This document shows, piece after piece, positions 1,430-44,588 of a stretch of DNA of 64,000 bases (position 1 is its first letter; each line of letters begins with the position of its first letter). Under the pieces are notes generated by a model that had not been told where the DNA came from, made no database searches, and saw only the letters and a program-made list of their open reading frames with translations. This stretch comes from Candidatus Desulfaltia sp. (GTDB lineage: Bacteria; Desulfobacterota; Desulfobacteria; Desulfobacterales; ETH-SRB1), in assembly GCA_030656555.1 (NCBI GenBank), contig JAUSPN010000040.1, positions 70,536 through 134,535 of the forward strand, read 5' to 3'. Position numbers and translations under genes: made by a program.

Positions 1430-3511
1430 GTGACAACAGACAAAGGCTTGGTTTTGAAAGGACCAGATGATCTCTTGCAAAATCTTCTTGAAAGCGATCC
1501 ATATCTGCGGCCATACGAAAAGGTCCTTAGAAGGAGACAAAAGCGCATTCGTGAAACCGAGGAGAGGCTAACCGGTGGAAAAATGAGCCTGCCTGAATTT
1601 GCGTCAGGCCATGAATATTTTGGACTTCATTTAAAAAATAATCAATGGATTTTTAGGGAGTGGGCTCCGAATGCAACCGCAATTTATCTTATCGGAAGGA
1701 TGTCTGACTGGCATGAGAGAAAGATGTTTGCTCTTGACTCTGTTGCCGGCGACGGTGTGTGGGAAATACGGCTGCCTCAAGATGCTCTTAAACACGGCGA
1801 TCTTTACCGGCTTCGCATACACTGGCCCGGCGGAGAGGGAGATCGGATACCTGCCTATGCAAGACGGGTAGTTCAGGACCCTGAAACATTAATTTTTAAT
1901 GCTCAGGTCTGGCTGCCCCCTTCACCATATCAGTGGAAATGCAACGATTTTCAGCCTCCATCCGGTGCTTTGTTAATCTATGAAGCACATGTAGGCATGG
2001 CCCAGGAAGAGGAGAAGATCGGTTTATACCGGGAATTTACCAGGCATATCCTCCCGCGGATCGTTGATAGCGGTTATAATACACTACAACTAATGGCGAT
2101 CCCTGAGCATCCCTACTATGGGTCGTTTGGTTACCATGTGTCGAGCTTTTTTGCTGCTTCCTCCCGGTTCGGAACACCGGAGGAACTAAAGGAGTTGATC
2201 GACGCGGCCCACGCAGCAGGCCTAGCGGTTATAATGGATTTAGTCCATTCCCATGCCGTATCCAATGAAGTGGAAGGCCTCAGCCGCTTTGACGGTACTT
2301 ACTATCAATATTTCCACGAAGGCCCCCGCGGATTCCACAAAGCCTGGGATTCCAGATGTTTTGACTTTGTAAAGCATCAGGTTCTTCATTTTCTTCTTTC
2401 AAACTGTCGCTTCTGGCTCGACGAATACCGTGTTGACGGGTTTCGTTTTGACGGAATAACCAGTATGCTTTATTTTCACCACGGCCTGAGCAAGGCATTT
2501 ACTTCGTATGCCGAATACTTTGACGACAGCGTTGACGAGGAAGCCTTGGTTTATCTCGTAATTGCCAACCGACTCATTCATGATGTGCGTCCTGATGCAA
2601 TTACAATTGCGGAAGATATAAGCGGCATGCCTGGGCTGGCTGCACCGCTTTCAGTGGGTGGAGTTGGTTTTGACTACAGATTTGCAATGGGGGTCCCTGA
2701 TTACTGGATACGGCTGACCAAGGATACAGCAGATGAAAACTGGGACATGGGGAATCTCTGGTATGAGCTGACCAACCGGAGAGAGGATGAAAAAACCATC
2801 AGCTACGCGGAATCCCACGACCAGGCTCTCGTGGGAGACCAGACCCTTATATTCAGGCTTGTCGGCTCAGACATATACAATCATATGAGTATTCATGACA
2901 AAAATATCAGAGTGGACAGAGGCATGGCTCTGCACAAGCTCATCCGCCTGATAACTCTTGCTACTGCCGGGAACGGTTATCTTAACTTTATGGGCAATGA
3001 ATTCGGTCATCCTGAATGGATTGATTTCCCCCGCAAAGAGAACTCATGGTCATATCGCTATGCGCGTCGGCAATGGCATCTTGTTGATGATCTTGAGCTG
3101 AAGTATCATCTTCTATCCAGTTTTGACCGCGATATGATCTCTTTGGCACAACATTACCGGCTTTTAGAAATTCCAGGGCAGGCTCTCTTGTTTCAACATT
3201 TTAGTGATAAGGTAATAGCTTTTAAACGAGCAGGGCTATTGTTCGTGTTCAATTTCCATCCATCCAAATCTTATGTTGACTATCGATTCGAGGTGCCGTC
3301 AGGAAAATACCGTATGGTCCTTAACAGCGATGCCGAACAATACGGCGGCTACGGACGGTTGATTCCGGATCAACACCATGAAACATCCATTGATGTTTCA
3401 GACAGCAAAAAGCGGCATCTGATCAGTCTCTATCTTCCTGCACGCACAGCCATTGTTCTGGAGAAGGTTGCAAGCACTTCCTTTCCCTGCAATACATGTC
3501 CTGCTCAATAG
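1430..3511 (+). CDS. glgB: 1,4-alpha-glucan branching enzyme, GH13 (eukaryote-like subfamily-8 type motifs)
   Basis: GH13 conserved regions are present: DLVHSH, GFRFDGITSMLY, IAEDISGMP, YAESHDQALVGDQ. I prefer the GTG at 1430, preceded by GGAGGA at 1419-1424, over the ORF-track ATG at 1355, which lies inside the repeat element. Confidence 0.85.
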   Translation: MTTDKGLVLKGPDDLLQNLLESDPYLRPYEKVLRRRQKRIRETEERLTGGKMSLPEFASGHEYFGLHLKNNQWIFREWAPNATAIYLIGRMSDWHERKMFALDSVAGDGVWEIRLPQDALKHGDLYRLRIHWPGGEGDRIPAYARRVVQDPETLIFNAQVWLPPSPYQWKCNDFQPPSGALLIYEAHVGMAQEEEKIGLYREFTRHILPRIVDSGYNTLQLMAIPEHPYYGSFGYHVSSFFAASSRFGTPEELKELIDAAHAAGLAVIMDLVHSHAVSNEVEGLSRFDGTYYQYFHEGPRGFHKAWDSRCFDFVKHQVLHFLLSNCRFWLDEYRVDGFRFDGITSMLYFHHGLSKAFTSYAEYFDDSVDEEALVYLVIANRLIHDVRPDAITIAEDISGMPGLAAPLSVGGVGFDYRFAMGVPDYWIRLTKDTADENWDMGNLWYELTNRREDEKTISYAESHDQALVGDQTLIFRLVGSDIYNHMSIHDKNIRVDRGMALHKLIRLITLATAGNGYLNFMGNEFGHPEWIDFPRKENSWSYRYARRQWHLVDDLELKYHLLSSFDRDMISLAQHYRLLEIPGQALLFQHFSDKVIAFKRAGLLFVFNFHPSKSYVDYRFEVPSGKYRMVLNSDAEQYGGYGRLIPDQHHETSIDVSDSKKRHLISLYLPARTAIVLEKVASTSFPCNTCPAQ

Positions 3512-3657
3512 AGGTGATAAAGCCGTTGACATTTTATCGGCCATTTCATAGAATAATTGTAGCCGTTCACGGCTTGAAGCTTGAAATTGGAAAGTAGAAA
3601 TTTGGGAGAGATGAAACGAGTTTACGAGAACAGCACAAAAGCATGAAGGCCGAATTT

Positions 3658-3714
3658 GATGAACTCGTAAAAAGTCTCCTAAACTTGTCACTTCGAGCAA
3701 AGCGAGAAATCTTT
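3658..3714. repeat. Half copy of the nested-hairpin intergenic element (family also at 33047 and 48466)
   Basis: GATGAACTCGTAAAAAGT and GTCACTTCGAGCAAAGCGAGAAATCTTT match the left arm of the full element at 33047-33187. Confidence 0.6.
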
Positions 3715-3757
3715 AAGCTGTAACCAATTGAAAAGATAAGCAATCAGGAGGTTTGAC

Positions 3758-4210
3758 ATGAAGGAATTTAATAAAATTTTATTTCCTGTTGATCTTTCAG
3801 AATCATCACCCAAAATCGTTCCCTTTGTGACAACAATGGCCCGTAAATTTGGATCGGAAATTCATCTTTTATTTGTGGCCCGTGTTTTTGAATATTTTTC
3901 CGGTATTTACGTTCCTCATACTTCTATAAACCAGTTTGAAGATGAGGTGGTGAAAGGAGCAAAGAAACGGCTTGAAGAATTTACTGAAGAATGTTTTTCC
4001 GATTTTCCGGGGACCGAAGCGAAAGTGGTGCCAGGAGATATCTCGGAAGAAATTTTAAAATATACCGTATTTAATGGCATTGATTTACTTATCATGGGAA
4101 CCCATGGCAGGAAGGGGCTAGAAAAGGTGATTTTTGGCTCTGTAGCGGAAAGGGTGGCAAAAGCCTCTTCCGTGCCGGTTCTTCTTATAAACCCTTATAA
4201 AGCTTCCTGA
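3758..4210 (+). CDS. Universal stress protein (UspA family)
   Basis: 150 aa, with a C-terminal GTHGRKGLEKVIFGSVAERV motif typical of the Usp ATP-binding type. AGGAGG lies 7 nt upstream of the ATG. Confidence 0.85.
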   Translation: MKEFNKILFPVDLSESSPKIVPFVTTMARKFGSEIHLLFVARVFEYFSGIYVPHTSINQFEDEVVKGAKKRLEEFTEECFSDFPGTEAKVVPGDISEEILKYTVFNGIDLLIMGTHGRKGLEKVIFGSVAERVAKASSVPVLLINPYKAS

Positions 4211-10354: not shown

Positions 10355-10769
10355 AGGGTTCACGGTTCAAGGTTAAGAGGTTCAAAGATTCATGATGCTT
10401 ACCCAGTGAAATCAGAGGCATCGGAAAAAATCGCGAAGCGATTAACCCTGAACCTGGAACCGTTAACCTTTGAACCCAGACCGACCCAATGTCCAATTTT
10501 TATCAGATCCGTTATGAATAAAGGGCTTGAAAACCATATAAAAATTATTTTTAACAAGGTCTGCTATTATTCACATGTAAACCAATTGTTTCACACATCC
10601 AACCTGTTGATATTTCATAATTTATTTATCAAATCTTTATCCTGATGCACCAATCACTGTAATCTAATAGTTTACAGAAAGTTTAAAGTCCAAACGCAAC
10701 CAATAAAATTAACAAGAAATTAATAATCATTACAAGCAATTAAGATTTTATTCTTGCTAACCTATTTTT

Positions 10770-33187: not shown

Positions 33188-33350
33188 AAATATAACCCTC
33201 ATTAAAGTTTTAAATAAATACAGACTAAAACATGTTGAGTTAAAAATACCTTTCTGTTAATTAAAACAGATTAGGTATTAGGTAATAAGTATTTGATAAA
33301 ATAAATAGTTGGTTTAACTTAACACTTAACACCTATTCATGGAGGCGGAT

Positions 33351-37004: not shown

Positions 37005-37068
37005 TTTAATTCTTCCTTTGCCCCGAAACAGTATAAGTAAACTACTTTTGAGGTTATACCTGAAATGA

Positions 37069-37136
37069 GCGATTAGCTATTAGCGGTTAGCTCTTAGCTA
37101 AAGGCTAACTGCTAATGGCCAACAGCTAATCGCTTA
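37069..37136. repeat. Word-type imperfect palindrome built from GCTAA/TTAGC units
   Basis: AGCGATTAGCT (37070-37080) is the reverse complement of AGCTAATCGCT (37125-37135). The interior consists of repeated TTAGC / GCTAA words. Confidence 0.65.
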
Positions 37137-39724: not shown

Positions 39725-41377
39725 TTATCCGAAAAAAAACGGGAGCTTGACAATAAAAGAAGCCCCTTTACCGAGCTCGCTCTCAACAGAGATGCTGCCG
39801 CCCAGTCTTTTTAAAATATTCAAACAGATGGAAAGTCCCAATCCGGTTCCCTGCGGCTTTGTTGTAAAGAGAGGGTCAAAGATATTTTTTAAGTTTTCCT
39901 CGGAAATGCCCTTGCCGTTGTCGGTAATAATTACAGTTACGCCGTCTTCCACAGAGCGGGTTATAAAAATGATTTCTCCATCTTGTTCAATGGCGGACAT
40001 TGCATTTAAAACCAGATTTTGAAAGAGGTGGCGCAGTTTTGAAGCATCACTTCTTACAGAAGGAAAATCATGTTGGAAATCTAATTTTACATTAATATTT
40101 TTAAAACTGAATTCTTCCTTTAAAATCTCTAATAAATCATTCAATATTCCATTAATATTCACTTCTGTAATTATTGGATCGCCGGGTTTTATAAAATTAA
40201 AGAATTTATCAATTGCTTTTTGGCCGCGCAGGGCCTCTGACTTGACCTGCTCTATATTTTTCTTTATATCATCCAAACGGTTTTCTCGGGTCAGTTCCCT
40301 GATCCATGCGGCAGCTACATCTATATTGGCCAGCGTATCTTTTATCTCGCGAAAGAAACCATAAGACAGCTCCATTGATGATGCCAGATAACTGGCACGG
40401 CGAAGCTGCTGATTCAGGACATGAATATTGCTTTTGTTATATTCCAGCATGGATACCAGGCGATTGGTTGTCAGAATGACCGTCCAAACAATCATGAAAG
40501 CTCCAAGAAGAAAAACAAGACCGCCTAACATATATATATGGTATAATTTTGAAAATATATCCCGGCGATTAATTTCAACCACATAAAGCCAGGGAACCTT
40601 TTCCAGCCATAGTGTCATACGGACTATTCCATCTTTTTCCTCCATCCTGATGCCTTTAAAATGCTCAAGCTGTTTAATATCCGACTGTTCCATCAGCTTT
40701 CCCGCCATTCGGGAACTGGTTTGAAAAATTCCGCTTTTGTTGACCAGATAAGAGTCTTGTTTCTTTTGACCCGAAAGTTCTGAAACAAGGTCATTAAAAT
40801 AGGCGGCATTTACAGTGGCGCGCAGTATCCATGGGCCATTGCCGGTTGTTTTTTTCACGGCAATAATAAAATGCGGCTCATTGCGGAAACCCGGAAACAC
40901 ATCGCTGATATATACATCATGCTTCATGGCCTGCTCGAACCACAATGCATTTTTATAGTTTTTTGAAATTAACTGATAAGGCCCGGCATAAGCCAGATGT
41001 CCGCCCTGGCCGTCAATAACACCCAAGTCAATAAAGGATGACAATTCCTGGTTTAGAGAATTATAAACGCTTTCAATAACACCGGGCTGAATCATTTGGC
41101 TAAGGCTCAAATTATTCGAAACCAGTTTAAGATCCATGGTTCGTTCAGCCAGAAACTGATCAATAGCTTTTTTGTGACTCAGAACTTCCGTGCGCAGGGA
41201 TGTCAGGGTGTTTTGTTTTAAAACAGAAGAAGCATAGTAATACATTCCGCCGCCTATAATAATGAGCGGTATTAAAGAAACCGCCAGCAGCGCTACTACA
41301 ATATTGTTCCTGATACGGCGGAAATAAGGGTAGTCTTGTTGCTGAAAATTACGAAATGTATTCAGAACTCCGGACAT
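39725..41377 (-). CDS. Cache-type sensor kinase paralog with degenerate H-box (phospho-acceptor His replaced by Arg)
   Basis: It shares YISDVFPGFRNEPHFIIAV with family 1. The HATPase N/G boxes are intact (NLVLNAMSA, DNGKGI, GTGLGLS). The H-box reads GFFREIKDT where paralogs have (I/F)AHEINNP. Confidence 0.85.
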   Translation of the reverse strand: MSGVLNTFRNFQQQDYPYFRRIRNNIVVALLAVSLIPLIIIGGGMYYYASSVLKQNTLTSLRTEVLSHKKAIDQFLAERTMDLKLVSNNLSLSQMIQPGVIESVYNSLNQELSSFIDLGVIDGQGGHLAYAGPYQLISKNYKNALWFEQAMKHDVYISDVFPGFRNEPHFIIAVKKTTGNGPWILRATVNAAYFNDLVSELSGQKKQDSYLVNKSGIFQTSSRMAGKLMEQSDIKQLEHFKGIRMEEKDGIVRMTLWLEKVPWLYVVEINRRDIFSKLYHIYMLGGLVFLLGAFMIVWTVILTTNRLVSMLEYNKSNIHVLNQQLRRASYLASSMELSYGFFREIKDTLANIDVAAAWIRELTRENRLDDIKKNIEQVKSEALRGQKAIDKFFNFIKPGDPIITEVNINGILNDLLEILKEEFSFKNINVKLDFQHDFPSVRSDASKLRHLFQNLVLNAMSAIEQDGEIIFITRSVEDGVTVIITDNGKGISEENLKNIFDPLFTTKPQGTGLGLSICLNILKRLGGSISVESELGKGASFIVKLPFFFG

Positions 41378-41403
41378 GACCTATAAGCTCTCCGTAAATG
41401 CTT

Positions 41404-41959
41404 GGTGCAATACAAAAAGTTGCATCATTGATGATAATATCTTTAGCTATTCAACATACTGATTTAATGTCGAATGTCGAACAGGAAATGTTAAATTATG
41501 AAGTTTTATTCTTGTTTTGTTTAGCAGTACCTACGCTTGTTACAAAAATCGAGATTAATTGATTATTTTCATCTATCAATACGTCAAGTTTTGACACTGG
41601 TTTTATCAATCCGGCCTTCACAATTATAAGCAGCCATATTCTGGTTTCCCTTAATTCTTTCAGCGCTAATCGCATCTTATGGATAAAATCAGCTCTTGAT
41701 TCAGCACTTTGTGCTTCACCATAATTTGGAGCTGGTGATGTCCCACTACGAATAAGCTGGCGGGAAATATGATTTCCAATTTTTGTTTTCGGTAATGACT
41801 CTGCTGTTCTGATAACACGTACAGCAAAATCGATCAGCCGTTCTTCAAGGTCAAATTCTCTGCATACCTTCGACATTCATTATTCCCTGTTCGACATTCG
41901 ATATTCAAAAAAGTTGCCCTTTTAATCTCTATACCTTATCACTTTTTTGTATTGCATCT
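41404..41959. mobile_element. Inverted-repeat cassette carrying a four-helix-bundle ORF, flanked by 10-bp direct repeats
   Basis: Direct repeat GTAAATGCTT at 41394-41403 and 41960-41969. Terminal inverted repeat TGCAATACAAAAAGT (41406-41420) / ACTTTTTTGTATTGCA (41941-41956). Inner inverted repeat AATGTCGAATGTCGAACAGG (41466-41485) / CCTGTTCGACATTCGATATT (41886-41905). Confidence 0.55.
41496..41876 (-). CDS. Four-helix-bundle protein (23S rRNA intervening-sequence protein / Avd-like family)
   Basis: 126 aa. Family-typical motifs are QLIRSGTSPAPNYGEAQSAESRADFIHKMRLALKELRET. Confidence 0.85.
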   Translation of the reverse strand: MSKVCREFDLEERLIDFAVRVIRTAESLPKTKIGNHISRQLIRSGTSPAPNYGEAQSAESRADFIHKMRLALKELRETRIWLLIIVKAGLIKPVSKLDVLIDENNQLISIFVTSVGTAKQNKNKTS

Positions 41960-42007
41960 GTAAATGCTTAAGTTTTATCGTATATTACTACCACTGATCC
42001 CTGTCCC

Positions 42008-42871
42008 TTACTCTGTTTCATGTTCAATATATTGAAAAATATCCTGTATTCTTATAATCCCGATTACCGTCTCATTTTTTACAACAGGCATTGTCCTGAA
42101 ATTATGGGTAATCATGCGGTGCGCTGCCTCTGTAAGGCGTTCATCGGGCCGGGCGGTTATTATTTCTGTTTGCATGACTTCAATTACGGTTTTATTGGAA
42201 AGCCAGTGGGGGCTTTTGCTGAGTTCCATCCACCTTAAAGAGAATTCAGGCTGCATTTTCTGTGCTTCATTTATCAGGTCCCGTTTGGTGATAAAGCCCT
42301 GAAGCCTGTCTTTATCATCTATAACAAACAGGGTTTCCGCCCCTGTTTCTCCTGTTTCCCTGTTAAACTTGTCCACTGCCTTTGCAAGTAAATCCTCTGG
42401 TCTGAGTTTTTTGAAATCATGGCACATGATTTCTTTAACCAGATTTCTGGGCCACAGCACTGGATTACGCTTGATTGCCTCTGCATCATTAGCCTCTCTT
42501 ATCTTTGCAGCCAAATCCTCTATGTTGCAGGGTTTCATCAGGTAATCATATGCCCCCTCTCGTATTGCCTGAATTCCGGTTTCCAGCGTGGCATGCCCTG
42601 TCAGTATAATAATTTCCGTGTCAGGAGCCAGCTCTTTAATTTTCCTGAGAGTTTCGATTCCGTCCATACCCGGCATTTTAATATCCAGAACCACCACGTC
42701 AAACTCATCTTCACGTTTAACCGCATCCAATGCATCAAACCCGTCAAATGCGGTAAACACTTCAAATTCTCTTATCCTTAATATCTTGGCCATGCTGAGC
42801 GTAAGCTGTTTTTCATCATCTACGATCAGGACGCGAATTTTTTTGTTCAAATCAAAAATCTCCAATACCAA
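42008..42871 (-). CDS. Response regulator with CBS-pair output domain (REC-CBS)
   Basis: The receiver has VLDIKMPGMDG and LMKPCNI, followed by two CBS motifs. The architecture matches 35731. Confidence 0.9.
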   Translation of the reverse strand: MVLEIFDLNKKIRVLIVDDEKQLTLSMAKILRIREFEVFTAFDGFDALDAVKREDEFDVVVLDIKMPGMDGIETLRKIKELAPDTEIIILTGHATLETGIQAIREGAYDYLMKPCNIEDLAAKIREANDAEAIKRNPVLWPRNLVKEIMCHDFKKLRPEDLLAKAVDKFNRETGETGAETLFVIDDKDRLQGFITKRDLINEAQKMQPEFSLRWMELSKSPHWLSNKTVIEVMQTEIITARPDERLTEAAHRMITHNFRTMPVVKNETVIGIIRIQDIFQYIEHETE

Positions 42872-43140
42872 CCGTCATTCCCGCGAATGCAGGGCACGTA
42901 GTGACACGCAGTGAAGCCAAAGCGCTAACCATTAGCGCTGTCCAGAGCTTTAAAGGTTCAGGATTCAGAGGTTCAATGTTTGCCGAAAACCTGTTTGCCG
43001 TAACTCCGGCACAGGCAGGTCTGAATCCCGCTCCAGCGGGAATTCGTGAGTTTTGAATAAAGAAGGCACAAAAGAATCAAACGATTTGAAAATGAAAATA
43101 TCGGCGCATAGCAGTTAGCCCTGCGCTCCAAGAAAAATAA

Positions 43141-43258
43141 CCCTGAACCTTTGAACCGTGAACCTGTGAACGGTTACGTAATAAGTAACCGTTCACGGTC
43201 GTCGGTTCATAGTTTTTTCAACCGTGAACCGATAACTGTAAACCGTGAACGGTTACTA
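43141..43258. repeat. GTGAACCG-word repeat array including an ORF-less miniature of the 49.9-kb four-helix-bundle cassette
   Basis: Perfect hairpin GTGAACGGTTAC-gtaataa-GTAACCGTTCAC (43166-43196). Blocks 43243-43256, 43213-43238 and 43185-43208 match, in inverted orientation and the same order, blocks 49864-49877, 49945-49971 and 50341-50364. Confidence 0.75.
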
Positions 43259-44326: not shown

Positions 44327-44588
44327 GATTCCCTCCGTATTCTGTCTTCCATTTATATTCTACAACTGTCAAAAATTGGTATATTCTTTAGTGGTCAAAA
44401 ATTAATTTTCTATATTAAAAACATTACTATTTGTCAAGAAGTTTCCTCGGCTTTATATGCGGCTTTAAAAGATCAAAAACCCCTTCCATGCTGGGTTCAT
44501 GCCGGTAAATACTTGACAGAAATTTTTTCAACTGATAGTTTTTGATAGTTTCTGAACCCTGAACCCTGAACCCTGAACGGAGACAGCC

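Follow-up and report, generated by a model that had tools for sequence, protein, structure and literature searches.

Few uncharacterised small proteins of bacteria are as numerous as the four-helix-bundle 'IVS proteins' (IVS, intervening sequence). One setting in which such a protein has been described is the 23S rRNA IVS of Coxiella burnetii, studied by Warrier et al., where a 28-bp stem of terminal inverted repeats encloses the S23p open reading frame (ORF) and where tandem heptameric repeats stand between a Shine-Dalgarno-like element and the S23p start codon (PMC4990558). Cleavage of this stem by RNase III has been shown experimentally, the ORF is reported to be decaying and probably untranslated, and the origin and mobility of IVSs were called unclear in 2016 (PMC4990558). 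Avd, a homologous small protein, is essential to retrohoming in diversity-generating retroelements (PMC10053308). Here we describe a cassette that carries an intact gene of this family within an operon of Candidatus Desulfaltia sp., in a stretch of 64,000 nucleotides (the window; contig JAUSPN010000040.1 of assembly GCA_030656555.1) to which all unlabelled coordinates refer.

Mobile insertion cassettes (MICs) such as MIC231, which is derived from IS231, are a second class of comparable elements. Work touching on these and on miniature inverted-repeat transposable elements (MITEs) includes the ISsaga paper (PMC3129680) and that on the qnrD 'mic' elements (PMC3913671). A third comparison is offered by the Mutator-like ISKra4/ISLre2/TnGBS group analysed by Guérillot et al., with inverted repeats of 18-39 bp that have a terminal C and with direct repeats of 8 or 9 bp (PMC3942029). 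The segment 41403-41959 of the window is very probably a non-autonomous, MITE-like 'mobile insertion cassette' with two Mutator-like (ISKra4/ISLre2-type) ends, moved in trans and carrying an IVS-type module.

The cassette is 557 bp long and stands between the genes for a response-regulator receiver with a CBS pair (REC-CBS) and a histidine kinase. Its only credible ORF encodes a 126-aa protein, and it contains no transposase. Both ends are 20-nt terminal inverted repeats of the sequence GGTGCAATACAAAAAAGTGA. A perfect 13-nt pair (41406-41418 and 41944-41956) extends to the 20-mers GGTGCAATACAAAAAGTTGC (41404-41423) and GATGCAATACAAAAAAGTGA (41939-41958, minus strand), which match the family consensus at 17 and 19 of the 20 positions, respectively. 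Around them the 10-mer GTAAATGCTT is found in two exact copies in the whole window, at 41394-41403 and 41960-41969, the chance expectation being 0.17. The sequence-only reading of this DNA had proposed a transposition-like insertion inside an operon, without a transposase, with inverted repeats just inside a 10-bp target-site duplication. All of this holds, save that the duplication is best taken as 9 bp (GTAAATGCT) plus one terminal element base on each side, a geometry taken from 22 other elements with identical offsets.

The same ends recur at many other places. The stretches of genomes and metagenomes that were retrieved are labelled with L and a number, L001 being the window locus itself. 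With the same gene between them, the 20-nt ends stand at unrelated sites in Desulfobulbaceae (L070) and Desulfobacterota M19 (L059), with their own duplications CCTTTCCACC and AGATTTGAGG; they also enclose this gene at another such site in Desulfobacteraceae (L006), with the duplication GTCGTATC. L133 is an independent cassette with the same gene and a duplication of its own, and L064 and L065 hold one cassette end each. Within the window itself there is no second copy of the cassette or of its ends. A metagenome scan with the terminus GGTGCAATACAAAAAARTGA matched at least 120 stretches. Paired ends among the matches listed fall into size classes of ~220-295 bp, ~400-450 bp, ~550-610 bp and ~2.43 kb, and exact flanking direct repeats of 7-10 nt accompany 40 of the 64 paired ends (8 nt in 15, 9 nt in 14), some of these 64 being false pairings. 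A flanking repeat of at least 8 nt would arise by chance with a probability of ~2e-4 per element. The commonest geometry has one extra element base outside GGTGC on each side, so that the ends read GGGTGC...GCACCC; the consensus ends of the family are GGGTGCAATACAAAAAAGTGA ... CCC, and the duplications are mainly 8 or 9 bp. The end type 'AAGTTG/AAGTTA' of the cassette is also the right end of the autonomous element described below and of many short derivatives.

At least 10 elements with paired ends bear the ORF (the window, L005, L006, L070, L059, L133, L114, L195, L165 and L169), which is disrupted in L169. Shorter derivatives with flanking duplications of their own number ~35 among the matches listed. 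Had other copies lacked such duplications, the sequence-only reading would have been refuted; those of L070, L059, L006 and the short derivatives bear it out instead. Some of the short elements (L100, L204, L149, L191, L139, L188 and L173) still carry 17-29 codons from the beginning and/or the end of the ORF, the stop-codon context is still present in the 220-245-bp class, and the motif of the stem arms that flank the ORF occurs on both strands in 43 of 48 short elements and in none of the autonomous elements. Because the ORF-end codons and arm motifs have been kept, the MITE family must have come from the ORF-bearing cassette by internal deletions, and its members have gone on transposing without the ORF. 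Their movement shows that the four-helix-bundle protein is not required in cis. Viral contigs yielded no copy of the transposon end and no relative of the 126-aa protein.

Two of the retrieved contigs end inside the cassette. L116 stops within the ORF, 34 codons in (1228-1329), and L002 stops at position 3061, just short of the 5' stem arm. Both are consistent with assembly breakage at a multi-copy repeat, and contig breaks at such repeats will hide these elements in metagenome-assembled genomes (MAGs) built from short reads.

The ~2.43-kb class supplies the transposase. Elements of this size with identical ends (L105, L163, L120, L148, L115, L166, L199 and L112, among the metagenome matches listed) contain ORFs for a 289-aa DruA/DUF4338-like protein and a 465-aa DDE transposase, and own duplications are seen in L105 (TCTCGATAT) and L199. 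The 465-aa protein matches the ISKra4-family transposase model NF033572 (E 9.5e-36, profile positions 66-421 of 422) and, more weakly, the ISLre2 model. Autonomous and short elements have only the terminal 21-31 bp in common, and shared termini alone are what commonly links a MITE to the insertion sequence from which it derives. Since an autonomous element with the same ends encodes a Mutator-like DDE transposase, mobilisation in trans suffices for the cassette. The suggestion that the movement follows no known mechanism thus falls away for the window cassette, but it still stands for modules without transposon ends. The 289-aa ORF lies upstream of the transposase gene (L105:953-1822; the same ORF in L163, L120, L148, L199, L112, L137 and L142). 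It matches PF14236, DruA/DUF4338 (E 2e-38; Druantia defence protein A), with a weak match also to the Mom family.

The passenger within these ends consists of the ORF and a stem that closes it. Matches of the 126-aa protein to PF05635 (53.8 bits, cut-off 33.8; E 2.5e-14), to TIGR02436 'four helix bundle protein' (81.7 bits, cut-off 24; E 3.9e-23) and to PDB 2RLD (E 7e-16) bear out its earlier description as an IVS-protein/Avd-like four-helix bundle. No catalytic motif, nuclease family or recombinase family was detected in it, and it matched none of the defence-system models. The ORF is under purifying selection, with dN/dS of 0.08-0.15 between the window ORF and other cassette-borne copies and dS of 0.6-0.8 between diverged copies.

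The stem is built of heptamer repeats, is 24-30 bp long and includes the Shine-Dalgarno sequence and the start codon. In the window it is a 41-nt inverted repeat, unique there, with 78% complementarity and a core matching at 17 of 18 positions (TGTCGAATGTCGAACAGG). It had been noticed before as a 20-nt inverted pair bracketing the ORF; that pair is real, but it belongs to an IVS-type stem found throughout the family and separate from the transposon ends. Indeed, the stem recurs in ~75 loci of many phyla. Across the 80 genome loci retrieved with the protein (65-98% identity), homology to the window ends at ~41462 and ~41908, thus comprising the ORF and the two arms. Their hosts are Desulfobacterota, Planctomycetota/Brocadiaceae, Nitrospirota, Verrucomicrobia, Acidobacteriota, Chlamydiae, Kiritimatiellae, Cloacimonadota and others. 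The arm consensus is [GAACCGCAG](GAATATC)n GAACAAGGAAT-5nt-ATGTCGAAG...TAA TTCGAAATTCCTTGTTC(GATATTC)n[CTGCGGTTC], with the Shine-Dalgarno sequence in the 5' arm, which meets the start codon, and with the 3' arm directly past the stop. The heptamer unit varies by lineage (GAATATC, GAATGTC, GAATGTA, GACGAGT, CAATATC), and the two arms change together. When the stems of 29 loci are aligned, 92% of the cells are paired and both sides have changed in 12 of 25 pairs; none of 500 shuffles reaches the observed values, and slid registers also come nowhere near them. The stem is present in the minimum-free-energy fold of the window transcript (z = -4.8), and no Rfam family matched within 41300-42100.

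The placement of the module is equally regular. The upstream gene is co-directional in 55 of the 61 loci with callable neighbours, 35 of these being co-directional on both sides (p = 5e-11), and the module is found inserted between hypD and hypE (L047), between cheR and cheB (L063) and between the genes for a dehydratase and its activator (L038). Among 20 related loci with large gene-free flanks no rRNA lies beside the module, the sole match being an unrelated group II intron in L019.

From these properties a mode of action can be sketched. A Mutator-like DDE transposase would have moved the cassette in trans into the short REC-CBS/kinase spacer. The module, which probably has no promoter of its own, would be transcribed by read-through from the host operon, and RNase III may then cut the stem, as in the Coxiella 23S rRNA IVS, freeing the module from the host transcript and splitting the operon mRNA. 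By this analogy the passenger is an IVS-type module, one that would work like an IVS without being filed as one.

The operon into which the cassette went is transcribed from the minus strand in the order REC-CBS, cassette, dCache histidine kinase, GNAT-like protein and deacetylase, with 630 nt between the REC-CBS stop and the kinase ATG. Among related operons, which were retrieved through homologues of the REC-CBS protein, L003 and L004 (REC-CBS 64% and 60% identical) have the same gene order with only 22 nt between the two genes. These junctions support the view that removal of the cassette leaves a normal operon junction, though the spacer left after excision is 64 nt and not the ~55 nt first estimated. 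The cassette is at the orthologous place in L005, a Desulfobacterales MAG (source JASEIZ01) with 94% nucleotide identity over 1.4 kb, and in L002, whose REC-CBS protein is 96% identical. As both are occupied, the insertion presumably predates the split of the window organism from the sources of L005 and L002. A true empty allele at this junction would read ...AAACTTAAGCATTTACGGAGAGC... with a single AGCATTTAC. The flanking repeat is decaying in the relatives, where it reads AAGCAATTAC against CAGCATTTAC in L005 and AAGCAGTTAC in L002, and at the orthologous position both show the unmutated end GGTGCAATAC. The window copy has one G-to-A change and one lost A in its ends, with its terminal base mutated. 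Because its ends and those of the orthologous copies are mutated, the window copy is probably no longer mobile. The features of the locus are collected in Table 1.

Table 1. Features of the window cassette and its host operon, with positions of a second type of transposon end found around the module in other loci
Feature	Coordinates	Strand	Remarks
Target-site duplication, kinase-proximal copy, GTAAATGCT	41394..41402	.	10-mer if the terminal T at 41403 is counted
Terminal inverted repeat, IRR-like end of the autonomous element, T-GGTGCAATACAAAAAGTTGC	41403..41423	.	Consensus minus one A
Spacer, transposon end to inner stem	41424..41462	-	Conserved in related cassettes and short derivatives (e.g. 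L204, L149, L100)
Inner stem, 3' arm, AUUUCCUGUUCGACAUUCGACAUU on the transcript	41463..41503	-	Heptamer units; starts 7 nt past the stop codon
Four-helix-bundle ORF (23S rRNA IVS protein/S23p/Avd-like), 126 aa	41496..41876	-	Intact; profile matches, dN/dS
Inner stem, 5' arm, GAAUAUCGAAUGUCGAACAGGGAAU...	41868..41908	-	Includes Shine-Dalgarno-like AGGGAA and reaches into the start codon
Spacer, inner stem to transposon end	41909..41938	-	
Terminal inverted repeat, IRL-like end, reverse complement A-GATGCAATACAAAAAAGTGA	41939..41959	.	One G-to-A change against consensus GGTGC
Target-site duplication, REC-CBS-proximal copy, GTAAATGCT	41960..41968	.	
Upstream operon gene, response-regulator receiver with CBS pair (REC-CBS)	42008..42871	-	280-aa form from an internal ATG is called in L001
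Downstream operon gene, dCache sensor histidine kinase	39725..41377	-	In L003 and L004 starts 22 nt past the REC-CBS stop
Second end type, CATAAGCGCTAACTTAAG	L022:2925-2942/3434-3451; L032:2900-2917/3479-3496		

Heptamer repeats are not confined to the cassette. Arrays of GGTTCAA, ATTAGGT, AGCTATT and CTGAACC lie in the window at 10357-10385, 33270-33332, 37068-37130, 43139-43171 and 44552-44578, the three that were checked (37068-37130, 43139-43171 and 44552-44578) falling between called ORFs, and a palindrome of GGTTCAC-like units at 43166-43257 lies between the REC-CBS and cation-exchanger genes. Hairpins made of heptamers would thus seem to be a general trait of the window genome. The intergenic region between the cation-exchanger and REC-CBS genes differs wholly between the window organism and L002 and is crowded with other repeats. 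The L002 spacer there (L002:1836-1938) holds an ORF-less hairpin of the same heptamer arms, which is absent from the window. When this Na/Ca exchanger-REC-CBS region was aligned between the window, L002 and L005, divergence was too great to set insertion boundaries.

Several points weigh against the interpretation as a trans-mobilised cassette with an IVS-type passenger. The terminal bases of the window copy deviate from the family consensus, and the 64-kb window encodes no transposase of the 465-aa kind. The autonomous copies are all on metagenome contigs without taxonomy and so are not tied to the lineage of the window. Their transposase scores 123.8 bits against the curated NCBIfam cut-off of 205 for ISKra4, so that only the wider Mutator-like group is secure, and its nearest annotated relatives, which are on plasmids, are 'ISLre2 family transposases' at 27-31% identity. 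An assignment to the ISKra4 family proper was dropped on these two grounds in favour of the wider group. Close relatives gave no empty site: both of the nearest, L005 and L002, carry the cassette, and empty junctions appear only at 60-64% REC-CBS identity. As to the passenger, read-through and RNase III processing are inferred, and sequence scans of the cassette gave promoter-like sites not above chance and no terminator-like site. Mismatches in the stem are G-U in 27 cases and A-C in 19 (p = 0.30); since this excess is not significant, pairing at the RNA level cannot be told from pairing at the DNA level by sequence.

The best-surviving alternative, which would supplement the cassette interpretation, holds that the inner IVS-type module is the mobile unit that matters and moves by a mechanism of its own, the transposon ends being one lodging place or vehicle; the window cassette would then stem from insertion of the module into, or its capture between, insertion sequence ends. 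We regard this as a tenable but minor contender. In its favour, the module stands without these ends at about 60 of the 80 genome loci, at 65-90% amino acid identity and across at least 10 phylum-level groups, and the module sits in junctions as tight as hypD-hypE and cheR-cheB. Moreover, a second, unrelated type of inverted-repeat end, CATAAGCGCTAACTTAAG, flanks the same module in L022, L032, L074, L011 and L033, with duplications of 11-13 bp (GGTATCGGCAG, GTGGGTACCCT(C)); one such end only is present in L010, L012, L019, L036 and L066. This end, which resembles IS231/IS4-family ends, is unrelated to the first, and therefore the association of module and transposon ends arose at least twice. 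The type of heptamer in the arms goes with the ORF subclade and not with the host, and the ORF-less hairpin of the same arms in L002 may also be counted on this side.

The hypD-hypE locus L047, in the MAG 'bacterium Yes70-31', has a module without transposon ends and also speaks for this alternative. HypD is 86% and 83% identical to that of L047 in L205 and L208, where, without the module, hypD and hypE overlap by 4 and 32 nt, respectively. In L047 the module parts the two genes, and on each side of it stands a perfect copy of the same 21 bp of host sequence (1208-1228 and 1745-1765); this duplication reaches ~33 bp with one indel and one mismatch and restores the hypD stop and the hypE start. 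This is much longer than the usual footprint of a transposase. On the other side, the empty-site comparison for such modules comes from L047 only, and neither a flanking duplication nor an end structure recurs consistently around modules that lack transposon ends, a clear host-sequence duplication being seen in L047 alone; most apparent direct repeats around them are the heptamer arms themselves or whole hairpins on both sides. Furthermore, the transposon ends and duplication fully explain the insertion in the window, and the arms are absent from autonomous elements, so that capture is indistinguishable from insertion.

Further observations concern the spread and arrangement of the module. At least 10 phylum-level groups have proteins with 65-80% identity to the 126-aa protein (loci L005-L084), and the heptamer arm type tracks the protein subclade across hosts, GAATGTA, for example, being shared by a Nitrospira MAG (L026) and 'bacterium Yes70-31' (L046, L047). 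These distributions point to frequent horizontal transfer. A Desulfocapsaceae MAG (L015) has a tandem pair of modules (3001-3381 and 3467-3847) with a 466-bp period and equal similarity to the window copy, which suggests that the tandem arose by recombination between arms. The ORF in L045, L079 and L025 is flanked by direct copies of a whole 100-190-bp hairpin, with the same heptamers and the GAACCGCAG motif, instead of by one split stem.

A bolder form of this thinking, possible but doubtful, makes the inner module (heptamer stem plus S23p/Avd-like ORF, ~445 bp) the conserved mobile entity: a selfish unit without a promoter, which passes between phyla and settles downstream of genes in its own orientation, at operon junctions, in the middle of transposons of two or more unrelated families and, as described in the literature, in helices of rRNA. 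It would be cut from transcripts via its stem and would need its own protein for propagation or retention, through some novel mechanism. Were this true, the 21-33-bp hypD-hypE duplication in L047 would be the footprint of its mechanism, and the abundant ORF-less MITE family would be decayed offspring of the module.

It is very unlikely that the four-helix-bundle protein itself catalyses or directs the movement of the cassette, as a new transposase or a homing factor acting on the inverted repeats. The protein is the sole ORF of the element and is under purifying selection, and Avd, its relative from diversity-generating retroelements, binds both nucleic acid and a reverse transcriptase there. 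The idea was also put forward by Ralph and McClelland for rRNA intervening sequences (cited in PMC4990558). Against it, the ends and the length of the duplication match those of a known group of DDE transposases, this gene is missing from the autonomous elements of that group, and the protein shows no sign of the catalytic functions looked for above. Dozens of ORF-less derivatives at new sites with normal duplications have largely refuted it for the outer layer of the element.

Less probable again is the notion that the ORF is the Avd of a diversity-generating retroelement and that the repeats are part of that system. PF05635 is indeed a family that resembles Avd (PMC10053308), but the gene is solitary inside a 557-bp transposon, and within ~4.5 kb on each side its neighbours encode a response regulator, histidine kinases, a GNAT-like protein, a deacetylase and a cation exchanger, with no reverse transcriptase among them. 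There is no pair of template and variable repeats either; the repeats found are the transposon ends and the stem arms. Vanishingly improbable, finally, is that the repeats are chance matches or a conserved regulatory region with no insertion at all: a 10-mer pair or a 13-nt inverted pair within 600 bp is, taken singly, not very improbable, but this reading is refuted by the recurrence of the same 20-nt ends, with differing duplications of their own, in at least 120 metagenome stretches and at unrelated genomic sites, and by the 22-nt junctions of L003 and L004, related operons without the whole segment.

What is new here is an IVS-type module on transposon ends, parent of an abundant MITE family and found, strictly oriented and with a strongly conserved stem, in operons of various phyla; no description linking four-helix-bundle proteins to MITEs was found in the literature searched. 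For members of an abundant and poorly understood gene family this provides one concrete and ordinary route of movement. The locus is a testable vehicle, in which the module rides Mutator-like insertion sequence ends, and probably the ends of a second, unrelated element as well. The heptamer-repeat stem is not peculiar to rRNA but goes with the gene in operons across many phyla. For annotation, the finding accounts for the way in which these genes break tight operons such as hypD-hypE and cheR-cheB and for assembly breaks at such places.

How does the window cassette compare with known systems? Integron gene cassettes are likewise promoterless single ORFs with an imperfect palindrome, situated downstream of a host promoter or gene in the same orientation. 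They have one 3' attC, whereas the window ORF has arms on both sides, no integrase or attI lies nearby, and the duplication and terminal repeats of the window element indicate DDE transposition. With Avd the resemblance is that of a homologous small four-helix-bundle protein; the window gene is solitary, and a nearby reverse transcriptase and template and variable repeats are not present.

The likeness to the 23S rRNA IVSs (of Coxiella, and of Leptospira as cited in PMC4990558) is closer, as they have a homologous ORF in the loop of a long stem, with heptamers and a Shine-Dalgarno sequence in the 5' arm, and transcription supplied by the host, as it would be here. The module in the window differs in lying in a protein-coding operon inside a transposon instead of in helix 45 of 23S rRNA, and its ORF, intact and preceded by a good Shine-Dalgarno sequence, evolves under purifying selection.

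For the outer layer, the element shares with the ISKra4/ISLre2/TnGBS group inverted repeats within 18-39 bp, a terminal C (in the family consensus), duplications of 8 or 9 bp and a cognate DDE transposase that matches the ISKra4 and ISLre2 models, and some members of the published group also have extra ORFs of unknown function (PMC3942029). It departs from the group in that the window element has no transposase, that the cognate transposase is under the curated ISKra4 cut-off and that the autonomous form has a DUF4338/DruA-like ORF.

MICs and MITEs, finally, differ from the window element in two respects. Its ends are Mutator-like (ISKra4/ISLre2-type) and not of the IS4 family, and its passenger is an IVS-type module with a long stem, kept in nearly all short derivatives, and not a resistance or metabolic gene. 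In other respects it conforms to them: two insertion sequence ends surround a passenger gene without a transposase, a target-site duplication accompanies insertion at many sites, a cognate transposase would mobilise the element in trans, and its deletion derivatives act as plain MITEs.

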